64,000 nt of DNA from Asanoa sp. NPDC049475 (GCF_040676915.1 NZ_JBFAPY010000006.1:538277-602276); one strand, 5' to 3'. Positions 19,696-55,646 are shown, numbered from the stretch's first letter. The notes: generated by a model not told the origin, from the sequence alone. Program-made: numbers and translations.

Positions 19696-19812
19696 CCGAT
19701 CGATCCTAGATCGTGAGGTAGTTGCCGCCTGGCACGGAATTGACACGGCGGTGGTAGCGTCTGCCCGGCTGGCGCCCCGAGAGCGACCGGCTCGTTACCG
19801 GGGAGGGCGTGG

Positions 19813-20664
19813 ATGAGACTGACCGAGGCGGAGAGCGGCCGCATCGCTGCGCTGCTCGACACTCACACCGAGAAGCTGACCGCGAGCTGGACCGACGCGG
19901 TCGCGGCGTCGCTGCGCGGGCGCCTGACGAGGACCGAGCTGCTCAAGCAGGTGCAGGATCTGCACCGGGCGATCCTCGAATCGCTGCGCTCCGGCGACTC
20001 CGACCTGACCGGTGACGGCTCGGGCGCCCTGCGCGCCGCGCTCGTCGACCTGTCCCGCAGCCGCGCCCGGCAAGGGTTCAGCGCTCCTGAGACCGCCGTC
20101 ACCGTGTTCGGGCTCAAGAAGGCGCTCTTCGACGTCGTCGACGTGCGCGCCGCCGAGCCGCAGGTCCTCACCGACCTGATCGCGGCCGGGCTGATGATCG
20201 ACGACCTGGGCCTGTTCACCTTCGAGAGCTACTCCAAGACCCGCGAGGAGCTGATCGCCGACCAGGCCGAGCAGCTCCTGGAGCTGGCCACACCGGTGGT
20301 CAAGCTGTGGGAGGGCGTCGTCGCGATCCCGCTGGTCGGCACCCTCGACTCGGCGCGAGCCCAGGTGGTCATGGAACGCCTGCTGGAGACGCTGGTCGAC
20401 ACGGGCTCGCCGTACGCCATCATCGACATCACCGGCGTGCCGGCCGTCGACACCCAGGTCGCCCAGCACATCCTCAAGACCGTGGTGGCGGCCCGGCTGA
20501 TGGGCGCCGAGTGCATCATCTCCGGCATCCGCCCGCAGATCGCCCAGACGATCGTCGCCCTCGGCATCGAGTTCGGCGACATCGCCACGAAGGCGACGCT
20601 CGCCGACGCGCTCCGGCACGCACTGCGGATGATCGAGTCGGCACGCAAGGGCCGGAGCAACTGA
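19813..20664 (+). CDS. rsbR: RsbR-like stressosome sensor protein (N-terminal non-haem globin-like domain plus C-terminal STAS domain)
   Basis: The C-terminal STAS domain (…VKLWEGVVAIPLVGTLDSARAQVVMERLL…IIDITGVPAVDTQVAQHIL…) is typical of RsbR. It heads an operon with overlapping RsbS and RsbT genes. Confidence 0.8.
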   Translation: MRLTEAESGRIAALLDTHTEKLTASWTDAVAASLRGRLTRTELLKQVQDLHRAILESLRSGDSDLTGDGSGALRAALVDLSRSRARQGFSAPETAVTVFGLKKALFDVVDVRAAEPQVLTDLIAAGLMIDDLGLFTFESYSKTREELIADQAEQLLELATPVVKLWEGVVAIPLVGTLDSARAQVVMERLLETLVDTGSPYAIIDITGVPAVDTQVAQHILKTVVAARLMGAECIISGIRPQIAQTIVALGIEFGDIATKATLADALRHALRMIESARKGRSN

Positions 20665-21092
20665 TGGAACGCGTCCCGGTCCTCAAGATCGGCGACATCC
20701 TGCTCGTCTCCATCCAGGTCGACATGCAGGACCAGACCGCGCTGGCGCTTCAGGAGGACCTCGCCGACCGGATCGTCGCGACCGGTTGCCACGGTGTGAT
20801 CATCGACATCACGGCGCTCGACATCGTCGACTCGTTCGTCGGCCGGATGCTCTCCTCGATCGCCTCGATCTCCCGGGTGCTCGACGCGGAGACGGTGGTG
20901 GTCGGGATGCGCCCGGCCGTGGCCATCACGCTGGTCGAGCTCGGCCTCTCGCTCGACGGCATCCGCACCGCGCTCAACGTCGAGCGGGGCATGGAGCTGC
21001 TGGCCCAGGCCCGGGCGAACCACCACGACCTGGGCCTCGACCTCGACGAACTCGGCGACCTCGACAGCTTCGGCCCGACGGCGACGCCGTGA
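20664..21092 (+). CDS. rsbS: RsbS-like STAS-domain stressosome scaffold protein
   Basis: It overlaps the RsbR stop in a TGATG arrangement. It is a single STAS domain (…PVLKIGDILLVSIQVDMQDQTALALQEDL…VIIDITALDIVDSFV…). Confidence 0.8.
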   Translation: MERVPVLKIGDILLVSIQVDMQDQTALALQEDLADRIVATGCHGVIIDITALDIVDSFVGRMLSSIASISRVLDAETVVVGMRPAVAITLVELGLSLDGIRTALNVERGMELLAQARANHHDLGLDLDELGDLDSFGPTATP

Positions 21093-21508
21093 CCACCGAC
21101 GTCGGGCTCGGCGAGCCACAGGTCGTCACCATCGCCGCCGACGAAGACGTGGTCCGCGTGCGCCAGTTGGTGCGCACCGTCGCGGTCGCGGCGAAGCTGT
21201 CGCTGGTCGACCAGACCAAGCTGGTCACCGCCGCGAGCGAGCTGGCCCGCAACACCCTCGTGTACGGCGGTGGCGGCGGCGCCGAGGTGACCGTGATCGA
21301 CGGAGGCCGGCGCAAGGGCATCCGCATCGTCTTCCGTGACGACGGCCCCGGCATCGCCGACCTCGACCTGGCGCTGACCGACGGATACACCACCGGCGGC
21401 GGGCTCGGCCTCGGGCTCAGCGGCGCCCGTCGGCTCGTCGACGAGTTCGACATCGACACGGCGGCCGGCCAGGGCACCCGGATCACCGTCACGAAATGGG
21501 CGCGGTAG
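21089..21508 (+). CDS. rsbT: RsbT-like serine/threonine kinase (HATPase_c, switch kinase of the stressosome)
   Basis: A GTG start overlaps the RsbS stop. The GHKL ATPase motifs are …LARNTLVYGGGG… and …DDGPGIADLDLAL…GLGLGLSGARRL…. Confidence 0.75.
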   Translation: MTTDVGLGEPQVVTIAADEDVVRVRQLVRTVAVAAKLSLVDQTKLVTAASELARNTLVYGGGGGAEVTVIDGGRRKGIRIVFRDDGPGIADLDLALTDGYTTGGGLGLGLSGARRLVDEFDIDTAAGQGTRITVTKWAR

Positions 21509-22518
21509 CGGTGACCCGCGACAGCGGGCTCGTCGACGGCGGACTCTGGTTCCGGCTCGACGAGTCCAGCGCGGTCAGTGCGGTCCGCCGGGCCGCACAG
21601 GACCTCGGCAACGAGGTGGGGCTTCCCGCCAACCAGGTCGGCGCGCTCGGGATCGTCGCCACGGAGCTGGCCAGCAACCTGGTGAAGCACGCCGACGACG
21701 GCCGGTTGATGCTGCGTGCGGTGCGCACCGGCGACGTCGCGGGCGTCGAGCTCGTGGCGGTCGACTCCGGCCCCGGCATGGGCGACCTCGCGCGGTCGGC
21801 GCGGGACGGGCACTCCACCGCCGGCACGCTCGGCATCGGCCTCGGCGCCATCGCCCGCCAGGCGGGCTGGCTCGACATGAGCTCGGTCGCCGGCCGCGGC
21901 ACGGTCGCCATCGCCCAGGTCTGGCCCGGCCCCGCACCGACGCCCGCCCGAGCGGCCGCGATCAGCCGGGCGATGAGCGGCGAGGAGGTCTGCGGCGACG
22001 GCTACGCGGTGCGCGTCGCGGACGGCCGCACCCAGGTGCTGGTCTGCGACGGGCTCGGGCACGGGCCGTTGGCGGCGGCCGCGACCTCGGCGGTGGTGCA
22101 GGCGTTCCACGTCGCTCCGGCCGGGCCTCCCGCGGCGGTGGTCGAGCATCTGCACCGTGCCGTGCGACACACCAGGGGCGCCGCCGTCGCGGTCGCCCAA
22201 CTCGATGACGACGAGATCAGGTACGCCGGACTCGGCAACATCACCGGAGTCCTCGTCGACGACACCACCCGGCGCGGCCTGGTCTCGCTCCCCGGCATCG
22301 CCGGTCACCAGCGCCGCGCGGTCCGGGAGTTCGGCTATCCCGTCACCCCGGACGCGCTGCTGGTCATGCACTCCGACGGTGTCGTCGACCGGTGGAACCT
22401 CGACGACTACCCCGGGCTGCGCGGGCGTTCGCCGCAGGTGATCGCCGCCACCCTCGTACGCGATGCCGGTGTGCGGCGGGACGACGCGTGCGTGCTGGTG
22501 GCGAGGGCCGGCCGATGA
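21496..22518 (+). CDS. Fusion protein: N-terminal RsbT/RsbW-like HATPase kinase domain plus C-terminal PP2C (SpoIIE) phosphatase
   Basis: The N-terminal part has …ATELASNLVKHA… and …VDSGPGMGDL…GTLGIGLGAIAR…. The C-terminal PP2C motifs are …CGDGYAV… and …VCDGLGHGPLAAAA…. It overlaps RsbT by 13 bp. Confidence 0.75.
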   Translation: MGAVAVTRDSGLVDGGLWFRLDESSAVSAVRRAAQDLGNEVGLPANQVGALGIVATELASNLVKHADDGRLMLRAVRTGDVAGVELVAVDSGPGMGDLARSARDGHSTAGTLGIGLGAIARQAGWLDMSSVAGRGTVAIAQVWPGPAPTPARAAAISRAMSGEEVCGDGYAVRVADGRTQVLVCDGLGHGPLAAAATSAVVQAFHVAPAGPPAAVVEHLHRAVRHTRGAAVAVAQLDDDEIRYAGLGNITGVLVDDTTRRGLVSLPGIAGHQRRAVREFGYPVTPDALLVMHSDGVVDRWNLDDYPGLRGRSPQVIAATLVRDAGVRRDDACVLVARAGR

Positions 22519-23861
22519 CCACCCGCCTGCTGCACGTGGTGCTGCGTACCGAATCCGACGTGTTCGTGGCCCGGCAACGGGCCCGCGAGGTGGCCGAGGC
22601 GGTCGGCCTCGAACACCAGGACCAGGTGCGGCTGGCCACCGCTCTCAGCGAGGTCGGCCGAACCCTGTTCACGGCCAGGGGCGGACCGCCGGCCACCGGC
22701 GCCGAAGTGTGGTTCGCGGTCAACGGTGGGAAACTCGATGTCGAGGTCGTCGCGATCGGCCCGAGCCAGGCGGCGCAGCTGCCGAGCCTCGGTCGCCTGG
22801 TCGACAGCCTGACGATCGACGACGGACCGACGACGACGGTGGTGCGGATGAGCCGGCGGATCCCGGGTGGGGTCGAGCTGACGCCCGACGACCTCGACCG
22901 CGTCCGCGACGCGCTGGCCGCGTCGGCGCCACGCACCCCGCTCGACGAGATGGCCGAGCAGAACGAGCAGCTGCTCGCCGCGCTCGAGGAGACCCGGGCG
23001 CATCGCGACGACCTGGTCCGGCTCAACGCCGAGCTCGAGGAGACCAACCGCGGTGTGATGGCCCTCTACACCCAGCTTTCCGGCGAGCTGGAGGAGACCA
23101 ACCGCGGCGTGGTCGCGCTCTACGCCGAGCTCGACGAGCGATCCGCCCAGCTGCGGGCGGCGAGCGAGGCGAAGACCCGGTTCCTGGCCAACGTGAGCCA
23201 CGAGCTGCGAGCGCCGGTCACGGCGGTGATCGGGCTGGCCCGGCTGCTCGACGACCCCGAGTCGGACCCGCTGACCGGCGACCAGACCCAACAGGTGGCA
23301 CTGATCCGCGGTTCCGCCGACGACCTGCTGCGTCTGGTGAACGACCTGCTGGACCTGGCCAAGGCCGAGTCGGGCACGATCGAGCCGGACTGGTCCGAAG
23401 TGGACCTGCGTGCGCTGTTCAGCCAACTGCGGGGCACCGTGCGGGCCATGGCCACCGGCGCCGTCGAGCTCGTGGTCACCGACCCGGAGCAACCCGCGAC
23501 GATCCGCTCCGACGAGGTGCTGCTCGCCCAGGTGCTGCGCAACCTGCTGCACAACGGGCTCAAGTTCACGACCGCCGGCGAGGTGCGGATGACCGCGACG
23601 CGCAGCGGCGACGAATGGCTGATCCAGGTCTCCGACACCGGCGTCGGCATCCCGGCGGAGCTGCACGAGCGGATCTTCGAGGAGTTCTACCAGGTGCCCG
23701 GCCGCACGCTTGCCGGCGTGAAGGGCACAGGGCTCGGCCTGCCGTACGCCCGCCGCCTGGTCACCCTGCTCGGCGGCACACTGAGCGTGGCCAGCGAGCC
23801 CGGCGCGGGCAGCACGTTCACCGTCCGGCTGCCGGCGGCGGAGCACTATGGAGCATCCTGA
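22515..23861 (+). CDS. Histidine kinase (HisKA plus HATPase_c) with an N-terminal RsbT-like (GHKL-like) domain and a coiled-coil linker containing a tandem 17-aa repeat
   Basis: It overlaps the upstream gene in an ATGA arrangement. The H-box is ANVSHELRAPV and the G-box region is …SDTGVGIP…GTGLGLPYARRL…. The first ~120 aa resemble the N-terminal domain of the preceding kinase-PP2C protein. Confidence 0.8.
   Translation: MTTRLLHVVLRTESDVFVARQRAREVAEAVGLEHQDQVRLATALSEVGRTLFTARGGPPATGAEVWFAVNGGKLDVEVVAIGPSQAAQLPSLGRLVDSLTIDDGPTTTVVRMSRRIPGGVELTPDDLDRVRDALAASAPRTPLDEMAEQNEQLLAALEETRAHRDDLVRLNAELEETNRGVMALYTQLSGELEETNRGVVALYAELDERSAQLRAASEAKTRFLANVSHELRAPVTAVIGLARLLDDPESDPLTGDQTQQVALIRGSADDLLRLVNDLLDLAKAESGTIEPDWSEVDLRALFSQLRGTVRAMATGAVELVVTDPEQPATIRSDEVLLAQVLRNLLHNGLKFTTAGEVRMTATRSGDEWLIQVSDTGVGIPAELHERIFEEFYQVPGRTLAGVKGTGLGLPYARRLVTLLGGTLSVASEPGAGSTFTVRLPAAEHYGAS
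23031..23135 (+). repeat. Near-identical tandem 51-nt repeat inside the histidine kinase gene, encoding ELEETNRGV(M/V)ALY(T/A)(Q/E)L(S/D) twice
   Basis: The unit gagctcgaggagaccaaccgcggtgtgatggccctctacacccagctttcc is followed by gagctggaggagaccaaccgcggcgtggtcgcgctctacgccgagctcgac. Confidence 0.7.
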
Positions 23862-25404
23862 GTCCGCCACGGTGCTGGTCGTCGACGACAGCGACGCCAA
23901 GCGCTACCTGCTGGTCCGCTGGTTGACCCGGGCCGGGCTCACCGTGGTCGAGGCCGACAGCGGCACGGCCGCGCTGGAGCGGGTGGCGCACGGTGACATC
24001 GACCTGGTCGTGCTCGACGTGCGCCTGAGCGACATGAGCGGCTTCGAGGTCGCCGAGCAGATCAAGTCGCATCCGGTGCTCGCGGCGATCCCGGTCATCC
24101 ACGTGTCGGCGCACGCGGTCGACGTCGCCGACCGGGCACAGGGCCTGACCCGGGGAGCCGACGCCTACCTGGCCGAGCCGATCGAGCCCGACGAGCTGGT
24201 GGCGACGGCGCACGCGGTGCTGCGGTACTACCGTGCCCGCCGACAGGCCGAGACGCTGGCCGCGGGGTTGACCCGCCTCGCCGAGACGACGGTCGCGGTC
24301 AACTCGGCGCGTACGCTCACCGAACTGTTGACCGCCGCCTCGCTCGGGGCGGCCGAGATCTTCGGCAGCGGCGCGGTGGTCGCGGCGGACACGGTCACCG
24401 CGGGCAGCTCGGCCGGCGATCGCTTGGTGGCCGCGGTCACCGACCCGACGGGGCCGCCGATCGTCCGCGAATGGCCCGCCGCGACGGCGGTCGTACCGGT
24501 CGGCGCGATGGTCCGCAGCGACCCCCGCGAACAGTGGCCGCAACTCGACTGGCCGGGCGACGAGGTCGCGGTCGGCACCGCCCGCATTCGCGGCGACCGG
24601 CCGCCGCTGCACGTGGCCATCCCGGCCAGCGCGCTGCGCGACCAGGCCGACGTGCTCCGGCTCCTGGTCCAGGCGTTGGCGACGGCGGTCGAGGCGCAGC
24701 GGACGTACGACGAGGAACACCGGATCGCGGTCACCCTCCAACGCAGCCTGTTGCCGCAACGGATTCCCGAGGTGCCGGGCTACGACCTGGCGGTCCGCTA
24801 CATGCCGGCCAGCGCCCAAACCGAGGTCGGTGGCGACTTCTACGAGCTGACGATGATCGACGGGCAGCTCCTGGCGGCGATCGGTGACGTCACGGGCCAC
24901 TCCCTCTACGCCGCGACGGTCATGGCCGAGCTTCGGCACGCGGTCCGGGCGTACGCGGTCGAAGGCCACCCGCCGGCGACGTTGTTGGCGATGACCGACC
25001 AGTTGCTGCGCAAGCTGTTGCCGGGCGAACTGGCCACGATCTGCGTGCTGATGCTCGACCCGGCGACGGGCCAGATCTGCCTGGCGAACGCCGGCCATCT
25101 GCCACCGGTGCTGATCGTCGACGGAGTGGTGACGTTTGTCGAACACCCGGCACCACTGCTCGGCATCGACGCACCTCGGCCGGGCGACCTCGACCTGGTC
25201 CTCCCGCCGGGCGGCACGCTCGTCCTCTACACGGACGGCCTGATCGAACGCCGAACCCACGACATCGACCACGGCCTGGCCGAGCTCGCGGAAGCTGCGA
25301 GGGAGGTCGACCCGGACCTGGAACGCTACGCCGACCACCTGCTGTCCCTGGCCACTCCCCCGGTCGGCGACGACATAGCCGTGGTCGCCCTGCACCGACA
25401 CTGA
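23848..25404 (+). CDS. Response regulator (REC domain) fused to a PP2C/SpoIIE serine phosphatase (RsbU/RsbP-like output)
   Basis: The REC domain is …VLVVDDSDAKRYLL…DLVVLDVRLSDMSG…. The PP2C motifs are …GGDFYEL…, …GDVTGHSLYAA… and …LVLYTDGLIE…. It overlaps the kinase by 14 bp. Confidence 0.8.
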   Translation: MEHPESATVLVVDDSDAKRYLLVRWLTRAGLTVVEADSGTAALERVAHGDIDLVVLDVRLSDMSGFEVAEQIKSHPVLAAIPVIHVSAHAVDVADRAQGLTRGADAYLAEPIEPDELVATAHAVLRYYRARRQAETLAAGLTRLAETTVAVNSARTLTELLTAASLGAAEIFGSGAVVAADTVTAGSSAGDRLVAAVTDPTGPPIVREWPAATAVVPVGAMVRSDPREQWPQLDWPGDEVAVGTARIRGDRPPLHVAIPASALRDQADVLRLLVQALATAVEAQRTYDEEHRIAVTLQRSLLPQRIPEVPGYDLAVRYMPASAQTEVGGDFYELTMIDGQLLAAIGDVTGHSLYAATVMAELRHAVRAYAVEGHPPATLLAMTDQLLRKLLPGELATICVLMLDPATGQICLANAGHLPPVLIVDGVVTFVEHPAPLLGIDAPRPGDLDLVLPPGGTLVLYTDGLIERRTHDIDHGLAELAEAAREVDPDLERYADHLLSLATPPVGDDIAVVALHRH

Positions 25405-25405
25405 G

Positions 25406-25441
25406 GCAAGGGCCCCTCGGCGCAGCGCGAGGGACCCTTGC
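25406..25441. terminator. Bidirectional hairpin between convergent genes
   Basis: GCAAGGGCCCCTCG-gcgcagcg-CGAGGGACCCTTGC forms a 14-bp stem with one mismatch. It lies between the stop at 25404 (+) and the stop at 25451 (-). Confidence 0.5.
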
Positions 25442-25450
25442 TCACCAGCG

Positions 25451-27502
25451 CTAGCGCAGGCCGTTGCGGATCGCTACCTGGATCAGCAGCCGGGGGTTGT
25501 CGGTGATGATGCCGTCGACGCCGAGGTCGATCACCCGTTGCATGACGGCCGGGTCGTCCACCGTGTACGGGACGACCTTGAGCTTGTCGCGGCCCTGGAG
25601 CACCGGGACGTCGGGGCCGAAGTAGTAGCTCGGGTCCTGGCGCAGGTACCAGTCGGGGCTGACGACGGTGCCCTGCGTCGGGTCGTGGACCTGCCAGTTG
25701 GCCGAGACCGTGCCGGCGCCCGCGGCGCGGACCAGCTTGCCGAGGTCGCGGTACTTCCACCAGTCGAGGCCGCCGGTCCACTGGCTCTTGACGGACCTGT
25801 CGCCGTAGACCGCCTGCAGCGAGCACTCGTCGGCCGGCGACGCGCACTCGGCCGGGCCGTACTGCCAGACCAGCGCGACCGTCTCGATCTTCTTGTCGAG
25901 CTCGCGCGCCCGGATGATCGTGCGCCAGTCGAACGACTGGATCGTGACCCGGTCCTCGAAGCGCGCCTTCTTGATCGCCTTGACCAGCTTGGCGGTGAAC
26001 GGGCCGAACGCCTCGGTGTCGTTCGCCGTCGGGCTGATCTTCGTCTCGATGTTCATCCGGACGTCCGGCCGGTCGCTCCCCTTGACCAGCGAGAAGACCT
26101 CGTCGAGCGTCGGGATCCGGGCGCCGGGCACGGCCACCTGGTCGGGCAGTTCCGGCAGCGTCTTCGTGCCACAGTCGATGGTCTTGATCTGCGCCAGCGT
26201 GAGGTCGTGCACGAGCTTGCCGACGTACGGGAACATCGGGTCCTTCGGCCGCACCGGCGCCGTGTCGACGCAGTGCGAGCCGTTGATCGCCCGGTCGTGC
26301 AGCACGACGAGCTTGCCGTCCTTGGTGACGCCCGTGTCGAGCTCGAGCGTGGAGACGGCGGGGTTGGCCAGCGCCTTCGCGAACGCCGGGAGGGTGTTCT
26401 CGGGCAGGTCGGCCCGGCCGCCGCGGTGAGCCTGCACGTCGAACGGCGACGCGTACGCCTTGGGCAGCTTGAACCGCGACTGGCCCAGCAGGGTGCGCAG
26501 CCGGTCGGGGTAGTCGGTGATGATGCCGTCGACGCCGTCGTTGATCAGCTTCGTCATCGTGGGCACGTCGTCGACGGTCCACGGAATGACCTTGATGCCG
26601 TTCTTGTGCGCGTGGTCGACCATCTCCCTGGTCACGTACGGCTTGTAGTTGGCGTCGGTCACCTTGCCGTTCTGCGGGTCGCCGTGCACCGGCGAGAACG
26701 CGGAAGCGCCGAAGGTCTTGATCGCCTTGATCGGGTCGCCGCCGAAGTCGTCGATGTCGAGCCCGCCCAGCCACGGCGACTTGCCGGGCATACCGGTCTG
26801 GTTCATCGCGGGGTTGCCCAGCGCGACCAGCGGCAGCCGCGGCTCGACCTGGCGCATCCGCATCAGCGCGCCCCAGTCGAACGACTGGATCGTGACCTGG
26901 TCGAGCAGGCCGGAATCGCGGATCTCGCGGGCGGTCACCTGCACGAACTGCTCGCGCGGCGCGGTCTCGCTGGGCGCGCCGGCCTCGACCTTGGTCTCGA
27001 CGTTGAGCTTCACGTCGCGCGCCTGGTAGCGGTTGACCAGCGCGAAAACCTCACTGAGCAGCGGCATCCGCGCACCCGGCACGGCGACCTGGCCCGGGAA
27101 GTCGGCCAGCGTCAGGCTGCCGCAGTCGAGCGTGCGCACCTGCGCCAGTGAGAGGGTGTTGATGTACTTGCCGATGTACGGGAACTCCGGGTCGCCCGGG
27201 AACGCCGGCGCGGTGTCCTTGCACTTCGAGCCGGTGGTCCTGCGGTCGTGGGTGACCACCGCCTGCCCGTCCTGCGTGATCTGCACGTCGAGCTCCAGCG
27301 TGGAGACGCCGAGCTGTAGCGCGTTGCCGAACGACGCGAGCGTGTTCTCCACCCGCAGCCCGATGCCGCCGCGGTGCGCCTGCAGGTCAAAGGTCTTGGG
27401 TGCGGCCGAGGCAGGGCTGATGCCGGCGGTCAGGCCGGCCACCCCGCTCAGGGCCACGGTGGCGGCGAGTGCCGTCACGGCACGTCGTTGCCAACGGGAC
27501 AT
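25451..27502 (-). CDS. Secreted glycerophosphodiester phosphodiesterase with two tandem GDPD domains
   Basis: A signal peptide is followed by two copies of the HRG motif region (…DLQAHRGGIGLRVENTL… and …DVQAHRGGRADLPENTL…). The two halves are about 45% identical. Confidence 0.85.
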   Translation of the reverse strand: MSRWQRRAVTALAATVALSGVAGLTAGISPASAAPKTFDLQAHRGGIGLRVENTLASFGNALQLGVSTLELDVQITQDGQAVVTHDRRTTGSKCKDTAPAFPGDPEFPYIGKYINTLSLAQVRTLDCGSLTLADFPGQVAVPGARMPLLSEVFALVNRYQARDVKLNVETKVEAGAPSETAPREQFVQVTAREIRDSGLLDQVTIQSFDWGALMRMRQVEPRLPLVALGNPAMNQTGMPGKSPWLGGLDIDDFGGDPIKAIKTFGASAFSPVHGDPQNGKVTDANYKPYVTREMVDHAHKNGIKVIPWTVDDVPTMTKLINDGVDGIITDYPDRLRTLLGQSRFKLPKAYASPFDVQAHRGGRADLPENTLPAFAKALANPAVSTLELDTGVTKDGKLVVLHDRAINGSHCVDTAPVRPKDPMFPYVGKLVHDLTLAQIKTIDCGTKTLPELPDQVAVPGARIPTLDEVFSLVKGSDRPDVRMNIETKISPTANDTEAFGPFTAKLVKAIKKARFEDRVTIQSFDWRTIIRARELDKKIETVALVWQYGPAECASPADECSLQAVYGDRSVKSQWTGGLDWWKYRDLGKLVRAAGAGTVSANWQVHDPTQGTVVSPDWYLRQDPSYYFGPDVPVLQGRDKLKVVPYTVDDPAVMQRVIDLGVDGIITDNPRLLIQVAIRNGLR

Positions 27503-30399: not shown

Positions 30400-30993
30400 C
30401 CGGTGGGCGACTTCATCGACACGACTCTGGGCTTTCCGTCCGTGGTCTTCACCGTCCTGCTGACGGTCGTCGTCTGCTATTGGATCGTCGTGCTGGCGGG
30501 TGGGCTCGACACCGAGACCGACGGCGGGCTCGACGGCATTCTCGACCGGCTCGGGCTCGGTGGCACACCGGCGACGATCGTGCTGTCCATTGTGGTCGCG
30601 GTTGCCTGGTTCGCGAGTCTCGTCGGCACGGTCGTGCTGCCCGACAACGCCGTCTTCGAGGTCCTGGTGCTGGTCGCCAGCCTGGTGGTCGGCTGGGCCG
30701 TCGCCAACCTGCTTCGCCGGCCGTTGCGCCGGTTCTTCCCTACCGCGCCCGAGGCTTCTCGTCATGACTTCGTCGGCCGGGAGTGCGTCATTCGCACCGG
30801 CCGCGTGGCCATCGACTTCGGCCAGGCCGAGGTGCACGCCGCCGACGGGTCGTCGGCCATCGTGCAGGTGCGCCAGACCGGTGTCGACACGTTCGCGGTC
30901 GGCACCCGCGCGGTCATCTACGACTACGACTCCGCCGGCGAGTTCTTCTGGGTCGTGCCGGCCGACCTCTCGAATCGATCGAAGGACCGTTGA
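30400..30993 (+). CDS. NfeD-like / YqiJ-like (DUF1449-type) membrane protein: N-terminal TM helices plus a C-terminal OB-fold domain. It is the first gene of the flotillin operon.
   Basis: Only one frame gives a sensible protein (…FTVLLTVVVCYWIVVLAGGL…LVLVASLVVGWAVANLL… then …VIRTGRVAIDFGQAEVHAADGSSAIVQVRQ…). It ends TGATG-coupled to the flotillin gene. The start is uncertain: GTG 30400 is the first in-frame start, while the only good SD (GAGGAA) precedes an out-of-frame ATG at 30384. Confidence 0.5.
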   Translation, partial: PVGDFIDTTLGFPSVVFTVLLTVVVCYWIVVLAGGLDTETDGGLDGILDRLGLGGTPATIVLSIVVAVAWFASLVGTVVLPDNAVFEVLVLVASLVVGWAVANLLRRPLRRFFPTAPEASRHDFVGRECVIRTGRVAIDFGQAEVHAADGSSAIVQVRQTGVDTFAVGTRAVIYDYDSAGEFFWVVPADLSNRSKDR

Positions 30994-33008
30994 TGGACGT
31001 CATCTCGCTCGGGTTCCTCGTCCTCGTCGTGGTGCTCATCCTCGTACTCCTTGGCGTCCTGCTGCTCGTCAGCCGGCTGTTCAAGAAGGTCGAGCAGGGC
31101 AAGGCGCTGATCATCTCGAAGACCCGCAAGGTGGACGTCACGTTCACCGGTGCCGTGGTGCTGCCGGTGTTCCACAAGTCCGAGATCATGGACATCTCGG
31201 TGAAGACCATCGACATCGAGCGGTCCGGCAACGACGGCCTGATCTGTCAGGACAACATCCGGGCCGACATCAAAATCACCTTCTTCGTGCGCGTCAACAA
31301 GACCGCCGAAGACGTGGTGAAGGTGGCCCAGGCGATCGGCACCGCGCGCGCCAGCGACCAGGCGACGCTCCAGGAGCTGTTCAGCGCCAAGTTCTCCGAG
31401 GCGCTGAAGACGGTCGGCAAGCAGCTCGACTTCGTCGACCTCTACACCAAGCGCAACGAGTTCCGCGACCGCATCCTCGCCGTCATCGGCACCGACCTCA
31501 ATGGATACTCGCTCGAGGACGCGGCGATCGACGTGCTGGAGCAGACTCCGCTCGACCAGCTCGACCCGCGCAACATCCTCGACGCGCAGGGCATTCGTAA
31601 GATCACCGAGCTGACCGCCACCGAACACGTGCGCACCAACGAGTTCCGGCGCAACGAGGAGAAGGAGATCACACGCCAGAACGTCGACGCGAAGGAAGCC
31701 ATACTCGAGCTGGAGCGCCGACAGGCCGACGCGGAGATCAAGCAGAAGCGCGAGATCGACACCATGCGGGCACGCGAGGAGGCCGAGACCGAGCTGGTCC
31801 GGGCCGAGCAGCGGCTGCGCTACAACTCCGCGAACCTGCGCACCGACGAGCAGCTCGGCGTCCAGCGGGAGAACCAGGCCCGGGAGATCGCGGTCGCGGA
31901 GAAAAACCGGGAACGCGTCATCGCGATCGAGACCGAGCGGATCGAGAAGGACCGCATGCTCGAGGTGATCGGTCGCGAGCGGGAGACCGAGCTCTCGACG
32001 ATCGCCAAGAACAAAGAGGTCGAGGCGGAGAAGCGGTCGATCGCCGAGGTGATCCGCGAGCGGATCGCCGTGGAGAAGACCGTCGCCGAGCAGGAGGAGC
32101 ACATCAAGCGCCTGCGGGTGGTCGAGGAGGCCGAGCGCCTGCGCCAGTCGACGATCATCCAGGCCGAGGCGATGGCGCAGGAGAACCTGGTCAAGGACAT
32201 CAAGGCGGCCGAGGCCGCGGAGGTTTCGGCCAAGCACCGCGCCCGCGAGCAGCTCGTCCTCGCCGAGGCCCGGCAGCAGGCCGCCGAGCTCGACACCCGG
32301 GCGAAGATCCGGCTGGCCGAAGGCGCGCAGGCCGAGGCAGCCGCCGCCGGGCTGGCCGACGTGCAGGTGCGCGAGCGCGACGCCGAGGCGATCGAGAAGG
32401 TCGGCCGGGCCGAAGCGGTGGTCGAGCGGGAGAAGGCGATCGCGGCGGCCGAGGGCATGCGCGAGAAGCTCAAGGGCGAGGCCGAGGGTCTGACCGAGAA
32501 GGCGGCCGCGATGGCGGCGCTGGACGACGCGACCCGCGAGCACGAGGAATACCGCCTTCGCCTGGAGGCCGAGAAGGAGATCCGGCTCGCCGGCATCGAC
32601 GTGCAGCGGCAGGTGGCCGAGGCGCAGGCCGAGCTCATCGGCAAGGGCCTCGAGAAGGCCGACATCGACATCGTCGGCGGCGACAGCATCTTCTTCGACC
32701 GCCTGATCGGCGCGATCTCGACGGGCAAGAGCGTCGACGGCTTCGTCGGCAACTCGACCGTGGCCACCTCGCTGGCCGGCCCGTGGCTCGACGGCTCGTC
32801 CAGCTTCGCCGACGACCTCGGCAAGCTGCTCGGCAAGGTGAACACGGCCGACGTGACCAACTTGACCCTCTCGGCGTTCCTGCTCCAGCAGATCAAGGCA
32901 GGCGGCAACGACTCCGGCAAGCTGCGCGAGCTCCTGACGGCCGCCGAGAAGCTCGGTGTCGCGGACGCGCCGCTGGCCGCGCTCAACTCGTCGGCCGCCC
33001 GTGGCTGA
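30993..33008 (+). CDS. Flotillin-family SPFH/Band-7 protein (FloT/YqiK-like) with a long coiled-coil C-terminal region
   Basis: An N-terminal membrane anchor LGFLVLVVVLILVLLGVLLLV is followed by the SPFH domain (…ALIISKTRKVDVTF…VLPVFHKSEIMDISVKTIDI…) and an extended Glu/Ala/Arg-rich coiled coil. It is TGATG-coupled to the NfeD-like gene. Confidence 0.85.
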   Translation: MDVISLGFLVLVVVLILVLLGVLLLVSRLFKKVEQGKALIISKTRKVDVTFTGAVVLPVFHKSEIMDISVKTIDIERSGNDGLICQDNIRADIKITFFVRVNKTAEDVVKVAQAIGTARASDQATLQELFSAKFSEALKTVGKQLDFVDLYTKRNEFRDRILAVIGTDLNGYSLEDAAIDVLEQTPLDQLDPRNILDAQGIRKITELTATEHVRTNEFRRNEEKEITRQNVDAKEAILELERRQADAEIKQKREIDTMRAREEAETELVRAEQRLRYNSANLRTDEQLGVQRENQAREIAVAEKNRERVIAIETERIEKDRMLEVIGRERETELSTIAKNKEVEAEKRSIAEVIRERIAVEKTVAEQEEHIKRLRVVEEAERLRQSTIIQAEAMAQENLVKDIKAAEAAEVSAKHRAREQLVLAEARQQAAELDTRAKIRLAEGAQAEAAAAGLADVQVRERDAEAIEKVGRAEAVVEREKAIAAAEGMREKLKGEAEGLTEKAAAMAALDDATREHEEYRLRLEAEKEIRLAGIDVQRQVAEAQAELIGKGLEKADIDIVGGDSIFFDRLIGAISTGKSVDGFVGNSTVATSLAGPWLDGSSSFADDLGKLLGKVNTADVTNLTLSAFLLQQIKAGGNDSGKLRELLTAAEKLGVADAPLAALNSSAARG

Positions 33009-36000
33009 GCAGGCCACGGCAACTCTGGACGCCGGCACCTATGAGGTCCTGCGCGACCGGCTGGCGGCGCGGTCCGCCGAGCTGGCCAGCCGGGCGGAGG
33101 AGCTCAACGCCCGGCGGCTGGCCGAGTTCGGCAGCACCGAGCTCCGGCTGGTCGGCACCGACCGGGTCCGCACCGAGCACAACTGCGTGCCGCGCGACAT
33201 CGTGCCGGCCGCCGGCGTGATGCTGTTCGGCTACAACGTGTTCCTGGGCCTCAAGCCCGAGACCTCGGTCGGCGACGTGTTCTCGCTGCACCGGTTCCTG
33301 CGCGACGGCGACGCCTTCCGGTTCGACGACGTGCCGCCGGCCGAGGTGCCCGGGTTGCTCGACGACGAGACGTTCCAGCGCGACTTCGCGGAGCTCTACC
33401 GCTACTACCGGGAGACCCGCCTCGCCACGCTGCGCGAGGTCGACGGGAAGCTGCTCGCCGTCTTCCAGACCGGCCCGCGCACCGAGGACATCCGCGTGCT
33501 GCGCTGGGCCACGGCCCCGGACGGCACCGTCGCATACGTCGACAACCGGGGTGAGCGCGACCACGTCTTCCCGCCCAGCCACGACCTTGAGTGGGTGGAG
33601 ACCACCCGCGACGACCACGTGCTCGGCCGGCACCCGCACATCTCGATCGCCGGTGAGCTGTTCGTGGAGACGGTCGGCGGCGACCTCACCCTCAAGATCG
33701 AAGACAACACCGAGTCCGGCGAAGGCATCTACGCGGAGCCGGTGGAGCAGCCGCTGCAGAGCCTGGCCGACGCCGACGTGCACTGGGCGCGGGTCGGTCC
33801 GCTGATCCTGCTCCGCGTCCGGCCGTACAAGGAAAGCGCCTGGCGTCATCTGGTCTTCAACACGCGCACCAAGGACGTGGTGCGGCTCGACGGCATCGGG
33901 CAGTCCTGCCAGCGGCTGCCGGAGGACCACGGGATCATCTTCCCGGGCGGCTACTACCTGACCACGGGCGTGGTGAAGACGTTCGAGACCGACACGGCCG
34001 ACCTGGTGTTCGAGCGGCTGATCCGGTCACCCAACGGCGAGGACGTGCTCTACGTCTTCCACGCGGTCGTCGAGGGACGCAGCCTGCTGCTGCCCTACAA
34101 CGTGATCCGCAAGGAGGTCGCGACGCCGCTCGCGTGCCACGGCTACTCGCTGTTCGACGACGGCACGCTCGTGGTCTTCCGGGCCACCTCCGACGAGCCG
34201 ACCCGCGTACACCCGATGCAGGTCTGGCAGACCCCGTTCCGATCCGACGCGTACGCCGCCCGCCAGCCCGCCGGCACCGGCCCGCTGGCCCGGGTGGGCA
34301 ACGCCGATCTCGTCCGCGGCATCTCCGACGCGCTGTCGGTGGCGCGGATGGTCGGCGAGATGAGCCCGTCGGTGCCGGTGTTCGAGGCGCTGATCGCCGC
34401 GTGCGTGCGGGTCTTCGACCACTACCACTGGCTGGGCGAGGCGGAGCTGTGCGACCTGCGCACCCCGCTCGCCGAGGTACGCGCGACCGCCGAACAGGTG
34501 CTCGACGAGTACGAGCGCGTGCAGGCCCTCACCGCCGCCGCCGGCACCGCACTGGACACGGCCGCGGCCGATCTGGCCTCGCTCCTGCGCCGGGTCAACG
34601 GCGAACCACCGACGAGCACCGACGGCTGGATCCGCCAGCTCGCCGACCTGCGTCGCGCCCAGGGTCACCTGGAGACACTGCGGGAGCTGCGCTACGTCGA
34701 CCTGGCCCGGATCGACGCACTGGCCGCGGAGCTGGCCGCCGAGCTCGACGCCACGGCCCGGCGGGCGGTCGGTTTCCTCGAGCGCGACGACGCGTTCGCC
34801 GCTTACGGCGCCGAGGTCGAGCGGCTCACCGCCGAGGGTGCCGAGGTGCCCACCGTCGCGGCCGCCGCACCGGTCGGCGAGAAGCTCACCGAGCAGGCCG
34901 ACGCGCTGCGCCTGGTGACCGACGTGGTCGGCACGCTGGACATCGCGGACGCGACCGTGCGCACCGCCATCCTCGAACGAATCGGCGACGTGCTCGGCGC
35001 GGTCAACCGGGCGCGGGCCACCCTCGAAGCCCGCCGCCGCGAGCTGGCCGCGGTCGAGGGCCGGGCCGGCTTCGCGGCCGAGTTCGCGCTGCTCAACCAG
35101 GCCGTGACCGGCGCACTGGCGGCCTGCGACACCCCTGAGGCGTGCGACGACCAGCTCGGCCGTCTGCTGCTCCAGGTGGAGGTCCTGGAGTCCCGCTACG
35201 GCGAGTTCGACGACTTCCTGACCGAGCTCTCGACCAAGCGCACCGACGTCTACGAGGCGTTCTCGGCCCGCAAGCAGGCACTGGTCGATGAGCGCTCGCG
35301 GCGCGCGGACCGCCTGGTCGAGTCGGCGGACCGGATCCTGACCAGCGTCCGCCGCCGCGCGTCCACGATGGACACTCTCGACGACGTCAACACGTACTTC
35401 GCCGGCGACCCGATGGTGGCCAAGCTCCGCTCGGTCGCCGACGAGCTGCGCGCGCTCGGCGACGCGGTCCGCGGCGAAGAGCTCGACGGCCGGGTCAAGG
35501 CGACCCGGCAGGAGGCCGGCCGGGCGCTGCGCGACCGGATCGACCTGTTCCGCGACGGCGGCGAGACGATCCAGCTCGGCCGGCACCGGTTCGCCGTCAA
35601 CACCCAGGCGATCGAACTGGCGCTGGTGCCGCACGACGGGGCCATGGCGGTCGCGGTCACCGGCACCGACTTTCGCGCGCCGGTCGACGATCCGGAGTTC
35701 CGCACGACCGGCGAGTTCTGGGACCAGCCGCTGGTCTCCGAGTCGCCGTCGGTCAGTCGCGCGGAGTTCCTGGCCACCTCGATCCTGGCCACGGCCGACC
35801 TTGACGCGCTGCACGCGGCCGCCGCCGGCGGCACCCTGGGCGAGCTGGTGCGGCGGGCCGCCGAGGAGCGCATCGACGAGGGCTACGAGCGGGGCATCCA
35901 CGACGCCGACGCCACCGCGGTCCTCGACGCGCTGCTGCGCCTGCACGCCGGCGCCGGCCTGTTGCGCTACCCGCCGGCGGCCCGGGCGGCGGCCCAGCTC

Positions 36001-42857: not shown

Positions 42858-44017
42858 TTCGCACCGCACTCGTCATCGGTGGTGGCATCGCCGGGCCGGC
42901 GACCGCCATGGCGCTCCGCAAAGCCGGCATCGACGCCACCGTCTACGAGGCGTCGACCACGCCGCGCGGCGGCGCGTTCCTCACCCTGGCCCCCAACGGC
43001 GTCGACGCGCTGCGCGTCCTCGACGCCGACGAGTCGGCCCTCGCCGATGCCTTCCCGACGCCGGGCATCACTCTGCGCAGCACCACGGGCAAGGTGCTGG
43101 GCGAGTCGAGCACCGGCGGGTCGCGCAGCTTCACGCTCCGCCGCGCTGACCTCTACCGGGGCATGCACGACGAGGCCATCGCGCGCGACATCCCGGTGGT
43201 GACCGGCAAACGGCTCGTGGGGTTGACCGAGACGTCGACCGGCGTGCGGGCCTCGTTCGCCGACGGCAGCACCGCATCGGCCGACGTGTTGATCGGCGCC
43301 GACGGGATCCACTCCGCGGTCCGCCGGGCCATCGACCCGGCCGCCCCGCCGCCGGCCTACGCCGGGCTGGTCGGGAACGGTGGCTTCGCGCCACCGGTGG
43401 CCGCGGTCGACGCACCTCCGGGCCACTACGAAATGATCTTCGGCCGGCGGGCGTTCTTCGGCTACCTGGTCGCGCCGGGCGACGAGGTGTGGTGGTTCGC
43501 CAACGTGCCGCACCGCCGCGAGCCGGCCCGCGGCGAGCTGGCGTCGGTCGACTGGCGGTCCCGGCTGCGCGAGCTGTTCGCCGACGACGCCGGACCGGCG
43601 CTGGCGGTCATCGACGCGACGACGGAGCTGGTGCCGATGGACGCGATCTCGTCCGTACGCGGCCTGCGCTCCTGGCACTCCCACCGGGTCGTGCTGGTCG
43701 GCGACGCGGCACACGCACCCACACCGACGTCGGGCCAGGGAGCCTCACTGTCCATCGAGGACGGATTGGTGCTGGCCAAGTGCCTGCGCGACCACGCTTC
43801 ACCGGCGGACGCCTTCGCCCGCTACGAGGCCGCGCGGCGCCCGCGGGTCGAAGCCATCATCAAGGCCGCCGCCCGCAACAACAGCAGCAAGGCCGCCGGC
43901 CCGGTCGGGCGGGTGATCCGCGACGCGATGCTGCCCACGATCCTGCGCCTGGCCGCCAACAGCGCGGCCCAGCGCAAGGTCTTCGACTACCACGTCGACT
44001 GGGCGGCTGCGGCCTAA
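42854..44017 (+). CDS. FAD-dependent monooxygenase (flavin aromatic hydroxylase family, salicylate-hydroxylase-like)
   Basis: The GxGxxG motif is ALVIGGGIAGPATA. The DG motif is …VLIGADGIHSAVR… and the GD motif is …VVLVGDAAHAPTPTSGQGASLSIEDG…. It overlaps the PadR stop in an ATGA arrangement. Confidence 0.85.
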   Translation: MIRTALVIGGGIAGPATAMALRKAGIDATVYEASTTPRGGAFLTLAPNGVDALRVLDADESALADAFPTPGITLRSTTGKVLGESSTGGSRSFTLRRADLYRGMHDEAIARDIPVVTGKRLVGLTETSTGVRASFADGSTASADVLIGADGIHSAVRRAIDPAAPPPAYAGLVGNGGFAPPVAAVDAPPGHYEMIFGRRAFFGYLVAPGDEVWWFANVPHRREPARGELASVDWRSRLRELFADDAGPALAVIDATTELVPMDAISSVRGLRSWHSHRVVLVGDAAHAPTPTSGQGASLSIEDGLVLAKCLRDHASPADAFARYEAARRPRVEAIIKAAARNNSSKAAGPVGRVIRDAMLPTILRLAANSAAQRKVFDYHVDWAAAA

Positions 44018-44427
44018 GCGGAGTCCATCGCCGCGAGCAGGTCTCGGCAGGCCTGCTCGCAGGCGCGGCAGGCGTCGGCGCAGATGCCGCAGTGTTCGTG
44101 CATCTCGGCGTGCAGGCCGCACTCCTGGGCACAGGCGGAGCAGGCGATGACACAGGCCTGGAGCATCGCCCGGCCGATCGTTGCGTCGTAGCCGGTGTGC
44201 CGCGACAGCACCCGCGCGGTCGTCGCGCAGACGTCGGCGCAGTCGAGGTTCGTGCGGATGCACCTGACGAGCTCGGCCACGTCGGGCTCGCTCAGGCACG
44301 CGTCGGCACAGGCCGTGCACGCCTCCGCGCAGTCGTCGAGAATGTCGATGGTGGCCGCGAGCTGGATGCGATCCAGGCTGATCGCCTGCGGGTAGGTCTC
44401 CAGCATGGGCAGCGTGGACGTCGTCAT
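44014..44427 (-). CDS. Cysteine-rich four-helix-bundle protein (DUF326-type)
   Basis: There are about 17 cysteines in 137 aa, in repeated C-x-x-C/C-A-x-x-C helical motifs (…DCAEACTACADACL…, …CADVCATTARVL…, …ACVIACSACAQECGLH…, …CGICADACRACEQACR…). Confidence 0.65.
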   Translation of the reverse strand: MTTSTLPMLETYPQAISLDRIQLAATIDILDDCAEACTACADACLSEPDVAELVRCIRTNLDCADVCATTARVLSRHTGYDATIGRAMLQACVIACSACAQECGLHAEMHEHCGICADACRACEQACRDLLAAMDSA

Positions 44428-44634
44428 GATTGCCTCCTTGTCGTCACGTGCCGCATTCCCGCATCCGTCGACCTCATGCCGTCAGCCGGCGTTCGAGCAG
44501 TGGCCTACCGGGCACCGTGTCGCCATGAGTGACTTCACGGACAAGGCGAAGGCGACCAGGGAGCTGAGCCGCCAAGAAACCAGCGCCGTTTCGAAGCCAT
44601 GCCCGTCGATGTGCCCCGGCGGCCAGCGCCTCAA

Positions 44635-55394: not shown

Positions 55395-55646
55395 GCCGAC
55401 CGACCTTATAGAGCTGCACAACCGGACGAAACCCCAGACGGTAAGCGATCCGGTATGCGCGGTCCGCCACGCTGTCCCCATCGGGGGCGGCGAGGGTCGC
55501 GACTCACCGCAAAGCGGCACCGACGGTGGGGCGGTGCCGCTTCGTCCCCGACGGCTGTGGCGGAGGCGGCCGCCTCCGGCATCCGGGGTCGTGAGACGTA
55601 GCGTGTAACTGTGGATGCACCGCCGGTCGTTGTTGATCGCCCGGTT

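Follow-up and report, generated by a model that had tools for sequence, protein, structure and literature searches.

How does a stressosome pass on its signal when the operon that encodes it contains no sigma factor? The question is raised by six overlapping genes, termed g1 to g6, in a 64,000-nucleotide (nt) stretch of high-GC DNA (about 72%) from the soil actinomycete Asanoa sp. NPDC049475 (GCF_040676915.1, NZ_JBFAPY010000006.1:538277-602276); this whole stretch is referred to as the window. In order, the genes encode an RsbR-type, an RsbS-type and an RsbT-type protein, a fusion of a kinase domain to a PP2C phosphatase, a histidine kinase, and a response regulator in which a receiver (REC) domain is joined to a second PP2C domain. 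An earlier annotation made from the DNA alone (the sequence-only reading) had named all six genes, and its assignments hold when compared with Pfam, NCBIfam and Protein Data Bank (PDB) matches. Pfam analysis of the six proteins likewise bears out its observation that rsbV, rsbW and sigB are missing from the operon. Most proteins encoded downstream of stressosomes lack the RsbU_N domain, and the mechanism by which they are coupled to the stressosome is an acknowledged open question (PMC9237108). Our analysis of the histidine kinase revealed an RsbT-derived input domain followed by a signature linker, an apparently undescribed feature that is backed by a natural protein fusion and that may serve as the coupling element of this system.

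The histidine kinase has an RsbT-derived domain and a signature linker

The product of g5 is a class-I histidine kinase, as judged from its Pfam matches (HisKA, 2.6e-19; HATPase_c, 2.6e-29) and from the invariant H229, N347, D374xGxG378 and G2 glycines. Across the six proteins, every catalytic or phospho-acceptor residue is invariant in 79-81 orthologues. The g5 protein is 39% identical over its full length to a kinase encoded at the equal operon position on the Deinococcus radiodurans plasmid pMP1. The sequence-only reading listed g5 as a cytoplasmic HisKA histidine kinase; the soluble kinase is confirmed, and what had been overlooked is an RsbT-like pseudokinase domain in front of the catalytic core. 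Residues 1-140 of g5 have no match in Pfam. Profile-profile comparison of ortholog alignments nonetheless aligned residues 6-104 with the RsbT of g3 at 97.5% probability (E 6e-12, 36% identity). The same procedure gave no alignment of this domain with the N-terminal domain of g4 (0.4%) or with the catalytic domain of g5 itself (0.5%). An AlphaFold2 model of the domain built from 51 homologues reached a predicted local distance difference test score (pLDDT) of 92.9, and in structural comparison with this domain histidine-kinase catalytic domains score 8.3 at best.

The residues that are kept and those that are lost give this domain a distinctive character. It retains two N-terminal helices that are shared with RsbT (D-V-x-x-x-R-Q...D-Q-x-R-x-x-T-A-x-S-E). 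The N-box asparagine has been lost, with D, V, L, T or E and never N at that position in 81 sequences; the G1 box is absent, and the ATP lid and G2 box are deleted. A search of 1.84 billion representative sequences returned 790 relatives of the domain. Most of the full-length ones are 440-720 amino acids long and match at the N-terminus, and each of the ten inspected is a kinase with this same architecture. The domain is still recognisable as HATPase_c_2, with its motifs complete, in one kinase each of Deinococcus and Terracidiphilus and in two metagenomic kinases, and the Deinococcus domain aligns with RsbT at 99.7% (hhalign). The simplest history would be a fusion of RsbT to a kinase, the RsbT part of which turned into a pseudokinase in actinomycetes.

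Equally characteristic is the linker that joins the pseudokinase domain to the H-box. One or two copies of the motif EL-x-x-TN-x-G-V-x-AL-[YH] occur in every relative examined, among them Streptomyces PP2C fusions and a Xanthomonas kinase that has no such N-terminal domain, and in alignment the motif hardly varies. In the window the two copies of the 13-residue motif lie 18 residues apart; by a strict pattern 36 of 81 g5 sequences (that of the window and those of 80 Micromonosporaceae loci) have two and the remaining 45 have one. Relatives in other phyla carry a single copy. Tandem Repeats Finder did not report the duplication at the DNA level.

A domain-linker-phosphatase fusion in Streptomyces bears directly on the function of this region. 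On a 608-kilobase (kb) plasmid of S. microflavus, a 458-amino-acid protein is encoded right after the R-S-T-(kinase-PP2C) genes. Residues 12-229 of this protein match the N-terminal domain of g5 together with its linker (hhalign 98.3%; 36% identity, E 7e-25), its residues 218-405 correspond to the PP2C domain of g6 (53% identity, E 5e-61), and it has neither a kinase core nor a receiver domain. The fusion therefore indicates that the RsbT-like domain and the RsbU-type PP2C are the input and the output of one pathway, and further suggests that the version in the window has had a His-Asp relay inserted between the two. S. fungicidicus and S. viridosporus encode proteins of 572-577 amino acids with the linker motif, a GAF domain and a PP2C domain. 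Their N-terminal domains were considered as kin of the g5 domain and are too diverged to be counted as such (8-34% probability only), so the Rosetta-stone argument is based on the 458-amino-acid protein alone.

Taken with the operon context, these data make it probable that g5 and g6 are functionally coupled to the stressosome. A more specific proposal, which we put forward tentatively and at somewhat less than even odds, is that the N-terminal domain and the ELEETNRGVxALY linker form an exchangeable input device through which an effector is physically connected to the stressosome, in competition or in a pair with RsbT. In the window and in Deinococcus a histidine kinase would be the effector; in Streptomyces it would be a PP2C phosphatase directly. 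If true, this would be a second, RsbU_N-independent answer to how stressosomes reach outputs other than sigma factors. We found no description of an RsbT-like domain on kinases in the searchable literature, which did not extend to the key 2005 and 2017 reviews, and an earlier mention is possible.

Conservation and variation of the six-gene unit

Gene calls were made from a third-position GC frame plot combined with a start-codon scan. The frame plot displays one uninterrupted coding run on the plus strand with five frame changes, and successive genes overlap by 1 nt (TGATG), 4 nt (GTGA), 13 nt, 4 nt (ATGA) and 14 nt. The coordinates and the overlapping start and stop codons given by the sequence-only reading proved exact. 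No transmembrane segments are predicted in any of the six proteins.

Further loci were collected by scanning one genome per species with an alignment of g4 relatives, which gave at least 520 loci, of which the best 80 were used. All 80 are from Micromonosporaceae (including Asanoa, Micromonospora, Actinoplanes, Paractinoplanes, Plantactinospora, Catenuloplanes, Polymorphospora, Pseudosporangium, Winogradskya and Melissospora). In tblastn searches with the six window proteins, g1-g6 were colinear in every one of these loci that was long enough (80 of 80 species), well outside what chance would give. Median intergenic gaps are -1, -4, -13, -4 and -4 nt, and the 4-nt overlap between g4 and g5 is kept in 65 of the 80 species. 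The flanking genes g0 and g7 are common to Asanoa only; because the flanks differ outside this genus, the six genes and not their surroundings are the conserved unit. Any impression that the arrangement is rare or peculiar to this genome is thereby dispelled, as it is family-wide in Micromonosporaceae and also occurs in Actinomadura, Dactylosporangium, Streptomyces, Deinococcus and Xanthomonas.

Elsewhere the arrangement recurs with variations. Actinomadura latina and Dactylosporangium fulvum keep the six-gene order with a hybrid g5 (kinase plus REC). Plasmid pMP1 of D. radiodurans has the first five genes in order, followed by a REC-histidine kinase instead of the REC-PP2C protein. Plasmid pXVH29 of Xanthomonas vasicola encodes R-S-T-(kinase-PP2C), a kinase core and a REC-containing hybrid. 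The pXVH29 kinase (locus L087, 6975-7850; 291 amino acids) begins at the linker motif ELEETNQGVLALY and has no RsbT-like domain, and is thus a natural deletion variant.

The stressosome core

The first gene encodes a protein with an RsbRD_N domain (1.4e-22, residues 11-109) and a STAS domain (5e-15, residues 164-266), the latter closest in the PDB to the RsbR proteins of Vibrio (5.7e-34) and Listeria (1.9e-29). The phospho-acceptors of Bacillus subtilis RsbR are T171 and, as a second site, T205. Their equivalents in g1, T214 (VDT) and S237 (SGIRP), do not vary among 80 sequences, the second acceptor being a serine where B. subtilis RsbR has a threonine. The g1 protein thus has both the N-terminal sensor and the acceptor-bearing STAS domain of an RsbR. 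The term globin-like for its N-terminal domain may be kept on the Pfam RsbRD_N match alone, RsbRD_N being the non-heme globin family of RsbR proteins (PMC8717448).

The g2 protein is a single STAS domain (2e-11) that matches the RsbS structures of B. subtilis (1.9e-33) and Listeria (2e-31) and MtS (7e-26). Its Ser57 (DIVDSF, aligned to DMIDSF) corresponds to RsbS Ser59 and is invariant in 81 sequences, which identifies it as an RsbS. The acidic tail of this protein, DLGLDLDELGDLD, extends it by about 25 residues past the end of the Bacillus protein and is encoded by 6- and 9-nt tandem repeats (CGACCTCGA x3) at the 3' end of g2 (window positions 21022-21065). The g3 protein matches HATPase_c (6e-14) and HATPase_c_2 (1.5e-9), and its N-box E51/N55, G1 D84xGxG88 and G2 glycines are invariant in 81 sequences. 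It has the size, boxes and position of RsbT, directly after rsbR-rsbS with a GTGA overlap. No RsbT chain was present among its PDB sequence matches, the nearest of which was SpoIIAB (1e-3). Together these results leave little doubt that the locus encodes an RsbR-RsbS-RsbT stressosome.

Two dissimilar phosphatases

The sequence-only reading counted two PP2C phosphatases. Both are present, and they are not equivalent: the g4 domain is MtX/RsbX-like and the g6 domain resembles the RsbU domain of Rv1364c. As one is RsbX-type and the other RsbU-type, the two domains probably play different roles. The g4 protein (HATPase_c_2, 4e-9; SpoIIE, 1e-13) consists of a kinase domain at residues ~22-144 and a PP2C domain at about 155-340. 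The PP2C profile matches Moorella MtX (3zt9, 2.8e-20) and RsbX (3w40, 4e-9), with SpoIIE at 1e-3 only, and the kinase boxes and PP2C residues D168, D185, D294 and D329/330 are all invariant. It is thus an RsbX-subgroup phosphatase encoded beside rsbRST, apart from its N-terminal kinase domain, which hhalign places closer to RsbT (98.8%) than to anything else available. Such a protein is probably a feedback or reset phosphatase.

Relatives of g4 number at least 6374 and bear the NCBI name 'ATP-binding SpoIIE family protein phosphatase', some carrying the source name 'anti-sigma regulatory factor'; NCBIfam also gives weak matches of g4 to the RsbA anti-sigma family (1.7e-6). Plasmids carry the fusion as well, with 99 records that range from Phaeobacter to Deinococcus and Streptomyces. 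The g4 protein of Asanoa sp. NPDC049518 (contig JBFAPQ010000006, GCA_040676785.1) is 100% identical, and that contig stops 35 nt past the g4 stop codon, inside g5.

The g6 protein (Response_reg, 2.8e-23; SpoIIE, 7e-41) has a REC domain at residues 9-120, a conserved middle region of ~200 residues (121-320) and a PP2C domain at about 321-518. In the PDB the PP2C domain is closest to the RsbU domain of Rv1364c (2.4e-25), followed by the REC-PP2C protein RssB of Pseudomonas aeruginosa (7e-18). Residues D13, D14, D57 and S87 of the receiver and D330, D347, D463 and D508/509 of the phosphatase are invariant, and g6 is probably the output phosphatase. Receivers have a near-universal lysine (CheY K109, PhoB K105). 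The kinase and REC-PP2C domains of an RsbK-RsbY type pair are all present in g5 and g6, with His229, Asp57 and the PP2C aspartates invariant, yet the receiver lysine is replaced by Glu110. Receivers of the same family in other loci (L082, L083, L086, L087) have aspartate (Actinomadura) or histidine (Deinococcus, Xanthomonas) at this position, never lysine, and the receivers of the operon family have the motif GADAYLxxP[IV][DE]P in common.

The middle region of g6 was searched member by member against Pfam in 40 orthologues (E<=1), which returned noise, and its profile matched nothing among PDB sequences. Comparison with the GAF regions of relatives by hhalign gave at most 56%, over the pre-PP2C helix only. 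A single-sequence AlphaFold2 model of the region had a pLDDT of 46 and was unusable.

A probable link to sigma-factor control

The sequence-only reading concluded that the operon leads to phosphorylation of unknown targets rather than to direct sigma-factor release. Since its terminal enzymes are phosphatases, dephosphorylation is the output instead. The second half of that statement is probably wrong as well, in view of an RsbV-type gene that adjoins the operon in sister genera and of SigB/F-family genes near the Streptomyces versions. In 72 non-Asanoa Micromonosporaceae loci (among L008-L081; Micromonospora, Actinoplanes and allies), a minus-strand gene for a single-STAS protein of ~116 amino acids diverges from g1 at a distance of 150-217 nt (for example L029, 5801-6154). 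The encoded protein matches STAS (1e-25), SpoIIAA (3e-14), RsbV (4e-12) and Mycobacterium tuberculosis RsfB (4e-10) and conserves the phospho-serine motif (FCDSTGLSV vs FMDSSGLGV); the sequence of the Actinoplanes protein includes MSLTVTTEQRGDMVVVSVAGELDMATAPQLQDQISDLLEKGRTRLVFDLAEVSFCDSTGLSV. In Streptomyces, too, a single-STAS gene precedes the operon and shows 31% identity to its Micromonosporaceae counterpart. It is surrounded by genes for an RsbW-like protein, a HAMP-rich hybrid kinase, more PP2C proteins and a sigma factor of the SigB/F family.

The window itself was searched for such partners. Among 29 further open reading frames, Pfam analysis detected neither a STAS protein nor an RsbW-type anti-sigma kinase standing alone; the sole extra HATPase_c_2 match is part of a HisKA_3 histidine kinase, within its catalytic domain. 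A tblastn search of the window with STAS, RsbW and sigma queries from Streptomyces and Micromonosporaceae found nothing. The sole sigma gene (44635-45855, minus strand) lies 19 kb off and encodes an extracytoplasmic function (ECF)-like protein of 406 amino acids with regions 2 and 4 and a C-terminal DUF6596; as there is no match to sigma-70 region 3, it is not SigB-type. It adjoins a gene for a DUF326 cysteine-rich protein (the pair spanning 44014-45855, minus strand).

Putative transcription signals and neighbouring genes

The features of the locus are collected in Table 1.

Table 1 Features of the six-gene locus, with positions counted from the first nucleotide of the window
Feature	Position	Strand	Length (amino acids)	Description
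Promoter-like element TGGTAGCGTC	19752-19761	+		Extended -10 type, TGnTAnnnT, 61 nt before the g1 start
g1	19813-20664	+	283	RsbR-type co-antagonist
g2	20664-21092	+	142	RsbS-type scaffold/antagonist; single STAS domain and acidic C-terminal tail
g3	21089-21508	+	139	RsbT-type switch serine kinase
g4	21496-22518	+		RsbT/RsbW-like kinase domain fused to RsbX-type PP2C
g5	22515-23861	+	448	Soluble class-I histidine kinase; RsbT-like pseudokinase, coiled-coil linker, HisKA, HATPase_c
g5 N-terminal domain (residues 1-116)	22515-22862	+		RsbT-derived pseudokinase; anti-sigma serine-kinase fold
g5 linker (residues 173-185 and 191-203)	23031-23123	+		Two copies of ELEETNRGV[MV]ALY between pseudokinase domain and H-box
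g6	23848-25404	+	518	Response regulator-phosphatase; REC, middle region, RsbU-type PP2C
GC-rich hairpin	25405-25442	+		Immediately 3' of the g6 stop; RNA folding energy -30 kcal/mol (z = -3.8), a stability reached by 0 of 200 shuffles

The element TGGTAGCGTC makes up the core of CCGGTG[AG]TAnnGTCCGCCCG, the consensus for the family. The pattern TG[GA]TAnnGT[CT] lies 36-61 nt 5' of the g1 start in 79 of 80 loci, against 0.41 of 80 in shuffled upstream regions, and this conservation suggests that the -10-like element acts as a promoter. A SigB-type promoter was rejected in favour of the extended -10-like motif, the pattern GTTT-N13-18-GGG[TC]A occurring upstream of g1 in none of the 80 loci. An operator-like dyad lies about 10-20 nt 5' of the -10-like motif (about 19720-19740 in the window; also in L029, L041, L072 and others). 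In Actinoplanes-type loci it reads TTAGTTGGC-N4-6-GCAA[CG]TAA, with the weaker GTAGTTGCCGCCTGGCAC in the window, and in most genera it falls within the region common to g1 and the divergent STAS gene.

The sequence-only reading had itself named a separate g5-g6 promoter inside 22400-22520 as a finding that would overturn it. Such a promoter is unsupported: the two genes overlap by 4 nt, the overlap is conserved, and a promoter scan of the g4/g5 junction found no sigma-70-like site. The six genes probably form one transcript that would run from the -10 element to the terminal hairpin. The hairpin sits between g6 and a convergent secreted tandem glycerophosphodiesterase-like gene (25451-27502, minus strand) and probably marks the end of the operon, with a putative terminator function. 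It does not appear in a simple terminator scan because it has no T-tract.

Elsewhere in the window, 30783-37872 (plus strand) encodes an SPFH/Band-7 protein of 741 amino acids followed by an overlapping gene, the 1638-amino-acid product of which matches DUF3686 (2e-220; 'ATPase involved in DNA repair'), DUF7902 and AAA; the two look like a conserved pair. An AfsR-like regulator of 1424 amino acids (Trans_reg_C, BTAD, NB-ARC, TPR) is encoded at 52215-56489 (minus strand), and a small Imm1-family protein, of a kind that confers immunity to polymorphic toxins, at 63204-63641 (plus strand), near the window end.

Discussion

Proposed mechanism and its alternatives

We propose that the signal passes from the stressosome to the g5 kinase, from there to the REC-PP2C protein and on to an RsbV-like antagonist that brings about sigma release. 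We give this whole chain a probability of roughly 0.55. At rest the RsbR/RsbS core would retain RsbT. Under stress RsbT would phosphorylate RsbS at Ser57 and RsbR at Thr214 and Ser237. The g5 pseudokinase, which keeps the partner-binding helices and would not bind ATP, could dock on the STAS surface that RsbT uses or pair with free RsbT. The state of the linker would then shift under stress and lead to autophosphorylation of g5 at His229, and transfer of the phosphoryl group to Asp57 of g6 would activate the PP2C domain. The g6 phosphatase would in turn dephosphorylate an RsbV/SpoIIAA-type antagonist, presumably encoded elsewhere in the Asanoa genome, and the antagonist would cause an RsbW-type anti-sigma kinase to let go of a SigB/F-type sigma factor. 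For reset, g4 would remove phosphate from RsbS-P and RsbR-P, with its RsbT-like domain as a docking or timing device. A framework for such a scheme exists in the linker-mediated activation described for RsbU-family phosphatases, REC-coupled ones included, and for kinases that share their N-terminal domains (PMC12143880).

Several observations weigh against this scheme. The RsbV-like gene is not adjacent to the operon in the window or in five other Asanoa loci, where an ADP-ribosylglycohydrolase gene stands in its place; Asanoa has lost the RsbV-type adjacency. No SigB-type sigma factor, RsbV or RsbW is encoded in the operon or among the scanned genes of the 64-kb window. Codon 110 of g6 (24175-24177) specifies glutamate in place of the canonical receiver lysine in 79 of 79 orthologues, so phosphotransfer or activation may be atypical. 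The N-terminal domain of g5 is not indispensable to the architecture, since the kinase of the Xanthomonas relative is without it, and the partner of the pseudokinase may be the STAS proteins, RsbT or another protein. The role of g4 may exceed reset because the ATP-binding motifs of its kinase domain are intact. Co-transcription is inferred from the gene overlaps only. Finally, the searchable literature contains no experiment on the six-gene system in any actinomycete.

The missing partner genes could mean that g6 acts on some other phosphoprotein, such as the STAS proteins of its own operon, a STAS-domain transporter or a metabolic enzyme, rather than on a sigma partner switch. Besides the lack of RsbV, RsbW and SigB-type genes in the operon, in the scanned genes of the window and at the Asanoa loci, such a target would suit the variable outputs of the module, as the last gene in Deinococcus and Xanthomonas encodes a REC-histidine kinase and Vibrio-type modules feed cyclic di-GMP (c-di-GMP) enzymes (PMC9237108). 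We nevertheless regard it as unlikely. The nearest match of the g6 PP2C domain is an RsbU domain whose substrate is an anti-anti-sigma STAS protein, an RsbV-type gene with its phospho-serine motif adjoins the operon in 72 sister-genus loci, and the Streptomyces versions are flanked by sigma B/F genes.

A second alternative concerns g4, the kinase domain of which might be an RsbW-like partner-switch kinase, perhaps an anti-sigma factor, that phosphorylates the same RsbV-like antagonist from which g6 would remove phosphate. The operon would then contain an anti-sigma element after all, a reading that is compatible with the proposed chain. The fully invariant ATP-binding motifs of the domain, the weak RsbA match and the anti-sigma names of some relatives agree with it. 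So do the S. coelicolor RsbW homologues near RsbV (SCO7328), which bind several SigB-type sigma factors and phosphorylate BldG (PMC8346170), a likeness that is by description only. The domain is nevertheless nearest to RsbT in profile comparison, and the RsbX-type PP2C protein directly follows rsbT in every lineage examined, some without a nearby sigma gene, which makes this role for g4 similarly doubtful. That g5 and g6 are an independent two-component system merely adjoining the stressosome genes is very improbable, for although an RsbT-D1 interaction could not be demonstrated in Vibrio (PMC9237108) and an internal promoter is possible by sequence, the two genes follow without intergenic space (the 4-nt overlap in most species), the synteny is invariant across families and phyla, g5 carries an RsbT-derived input domain, and the S. 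microflavus fusion bypasses the relay.

Comparison with known systems

The proposed chain would work like a Bacillus stressosome joined to a relay resembling RsbK-RsbY of B. cereus. With the sigma-B cascade of B. subtilis and Listeria the locus shares the RsbR (non-heme globin-family domain plus STAS), RsbS and RsbT order, the coupled junctions and the acceptors, as well as the presence of both an RsbX-type and an RsbU-type PP2C. Unlike in Bacillus, the RsbX forms a fusion with an RsbT-like kinase domain and directly follows rsbT, a histidine kinase and a receiver stand between the stressosome and the RsbU-type phosphatase, and rsbV, rsbW and sigB lie outside the operon. No RsbU_N match was found in the six proteins at E<=0.01, so the Bacillus type of coupling domain is absent from them at this threshold.

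RsbK is a multi-sensor hybrid kinase that works with an RsbM methyltransferase and without a stressosome. In B. cereus, as reportedly described by de Been et al. in 2011 (cited in PMC8115616), this hybrid kinase signals to the REC-PP2C protein RsbY and through it to RsbV. A histidine kinase followed by a REC-PP2C protein as the route to a partner switch would be common to both systems. The kinase in the window differs from RsbK in its RsbT-like input and in its place in an rsbRST operon. Pfam detected no methyltransferase and no RsbK-type sensor domains in the six genes; no rsbM-like gene was sought in the flanks.

To our knowledge, Rv1364c of M. tuberculosis, the protein closest to the g6 phosphatase, is not linked to an rsbRST module. 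As a PAS-RsbU-RsbW-RsbV fusion it has a different domain order and different partners from the system described here, and neither a histidine kinase nor a receiver (PMC12143880). The MtR-MtS-MtT-MtX-MtG system of Moorella thermoacetica, which controls a diguanylate cyclase, resembles the present one in its non-sigma operon output and in that MtX is nearest to the PP2C domain of g4. MtG receives RsbT via an RsbU_N domain (PMC12143880), whereas the input domain in the window is an RsbT paralogue.

The comparison with Vibrio-type couplings of a stressosome to a two-component system, which the sequence-only reading had drawn, is apt (PMC9237108). Vibrio vulnificus and V. brasiliensis encode RsbRSTX and, a few bases on, the histidine kinase and receiver proteins VvD1-VvD2, with no sigma factor (PMC9237108, PMC4976288), and here too a histidine kinase and a receiver directly follow the RSTX genes (g5 and g6, with 4- and 14-nt overlaps). 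The Vibrio RsbR is a heme globin-coupled sensor, its RsbX is a single-domain protein, and its outputs point to c-di-GMP control (PMC9237108). The locus in the window differs in its RsbX-kinase fusion, in the RsbT-like input on its kinase and in its PP2C output. For the N-terminal domain of g1, Pfam lists RsbRD_N and neither Protoglobin nor Globin, which sets it apart from the Vibrio heme sensor.

Closer to home, the Streptomyces versions differ from the locus in having no histidine kinase or REC step. The S. viridosporus locus contains RsbW-like, hybrid HAMP kinase, PP2C and single-STAS genes, then R-S-T-(kinase-PP2C)-(N-linker-GAF-PP2C), with a SigB-like sigma gene nearby. In S. coelicolor the literature describes SCO7324 as RsbR/RsbS-related and first in an operon of five genes, SCO7325 as RsbV, a SigB anti-anti-sigma factor, SCO7327 as the hybrid kinase OsaD and SCO7328 as an RsbW homologue. 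The two compositions appear to match, a comparison of descriptions that we offer as a lead only. A homologue search with a Streptomyces RsbS returned at least 120 Streptomyces proteins, with S. coelicolor not among the matches listed. As summarised in PMC9237108, RsbRST(X) modules with alternative outputs are a known class (Pané-Farré 2005, cited in PMC9237108). The architecture described here is widespread and automatically annotated and is a variant of that scheme; its distribution and general logic are ordinary, and what appears new is the input domain and linker of g5.

Significance

Stressosomes occur in many phyla, yet except in Bacillus and Listeria little is known of how RsbT leads to the output. 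The present analysis offers a testable coupling element, an RsbT-like domain with a signature linker on the first output protein. Nature supplies the controls in the form of versions with an intact kinase domain, with a pseudokinase, without the domain and with a direct fusion to the phosphatase. In Micromonosporaceae, a family rich in antibiotic producers, the finding points to a stress input into the control of SigB/F-type sigma factors.

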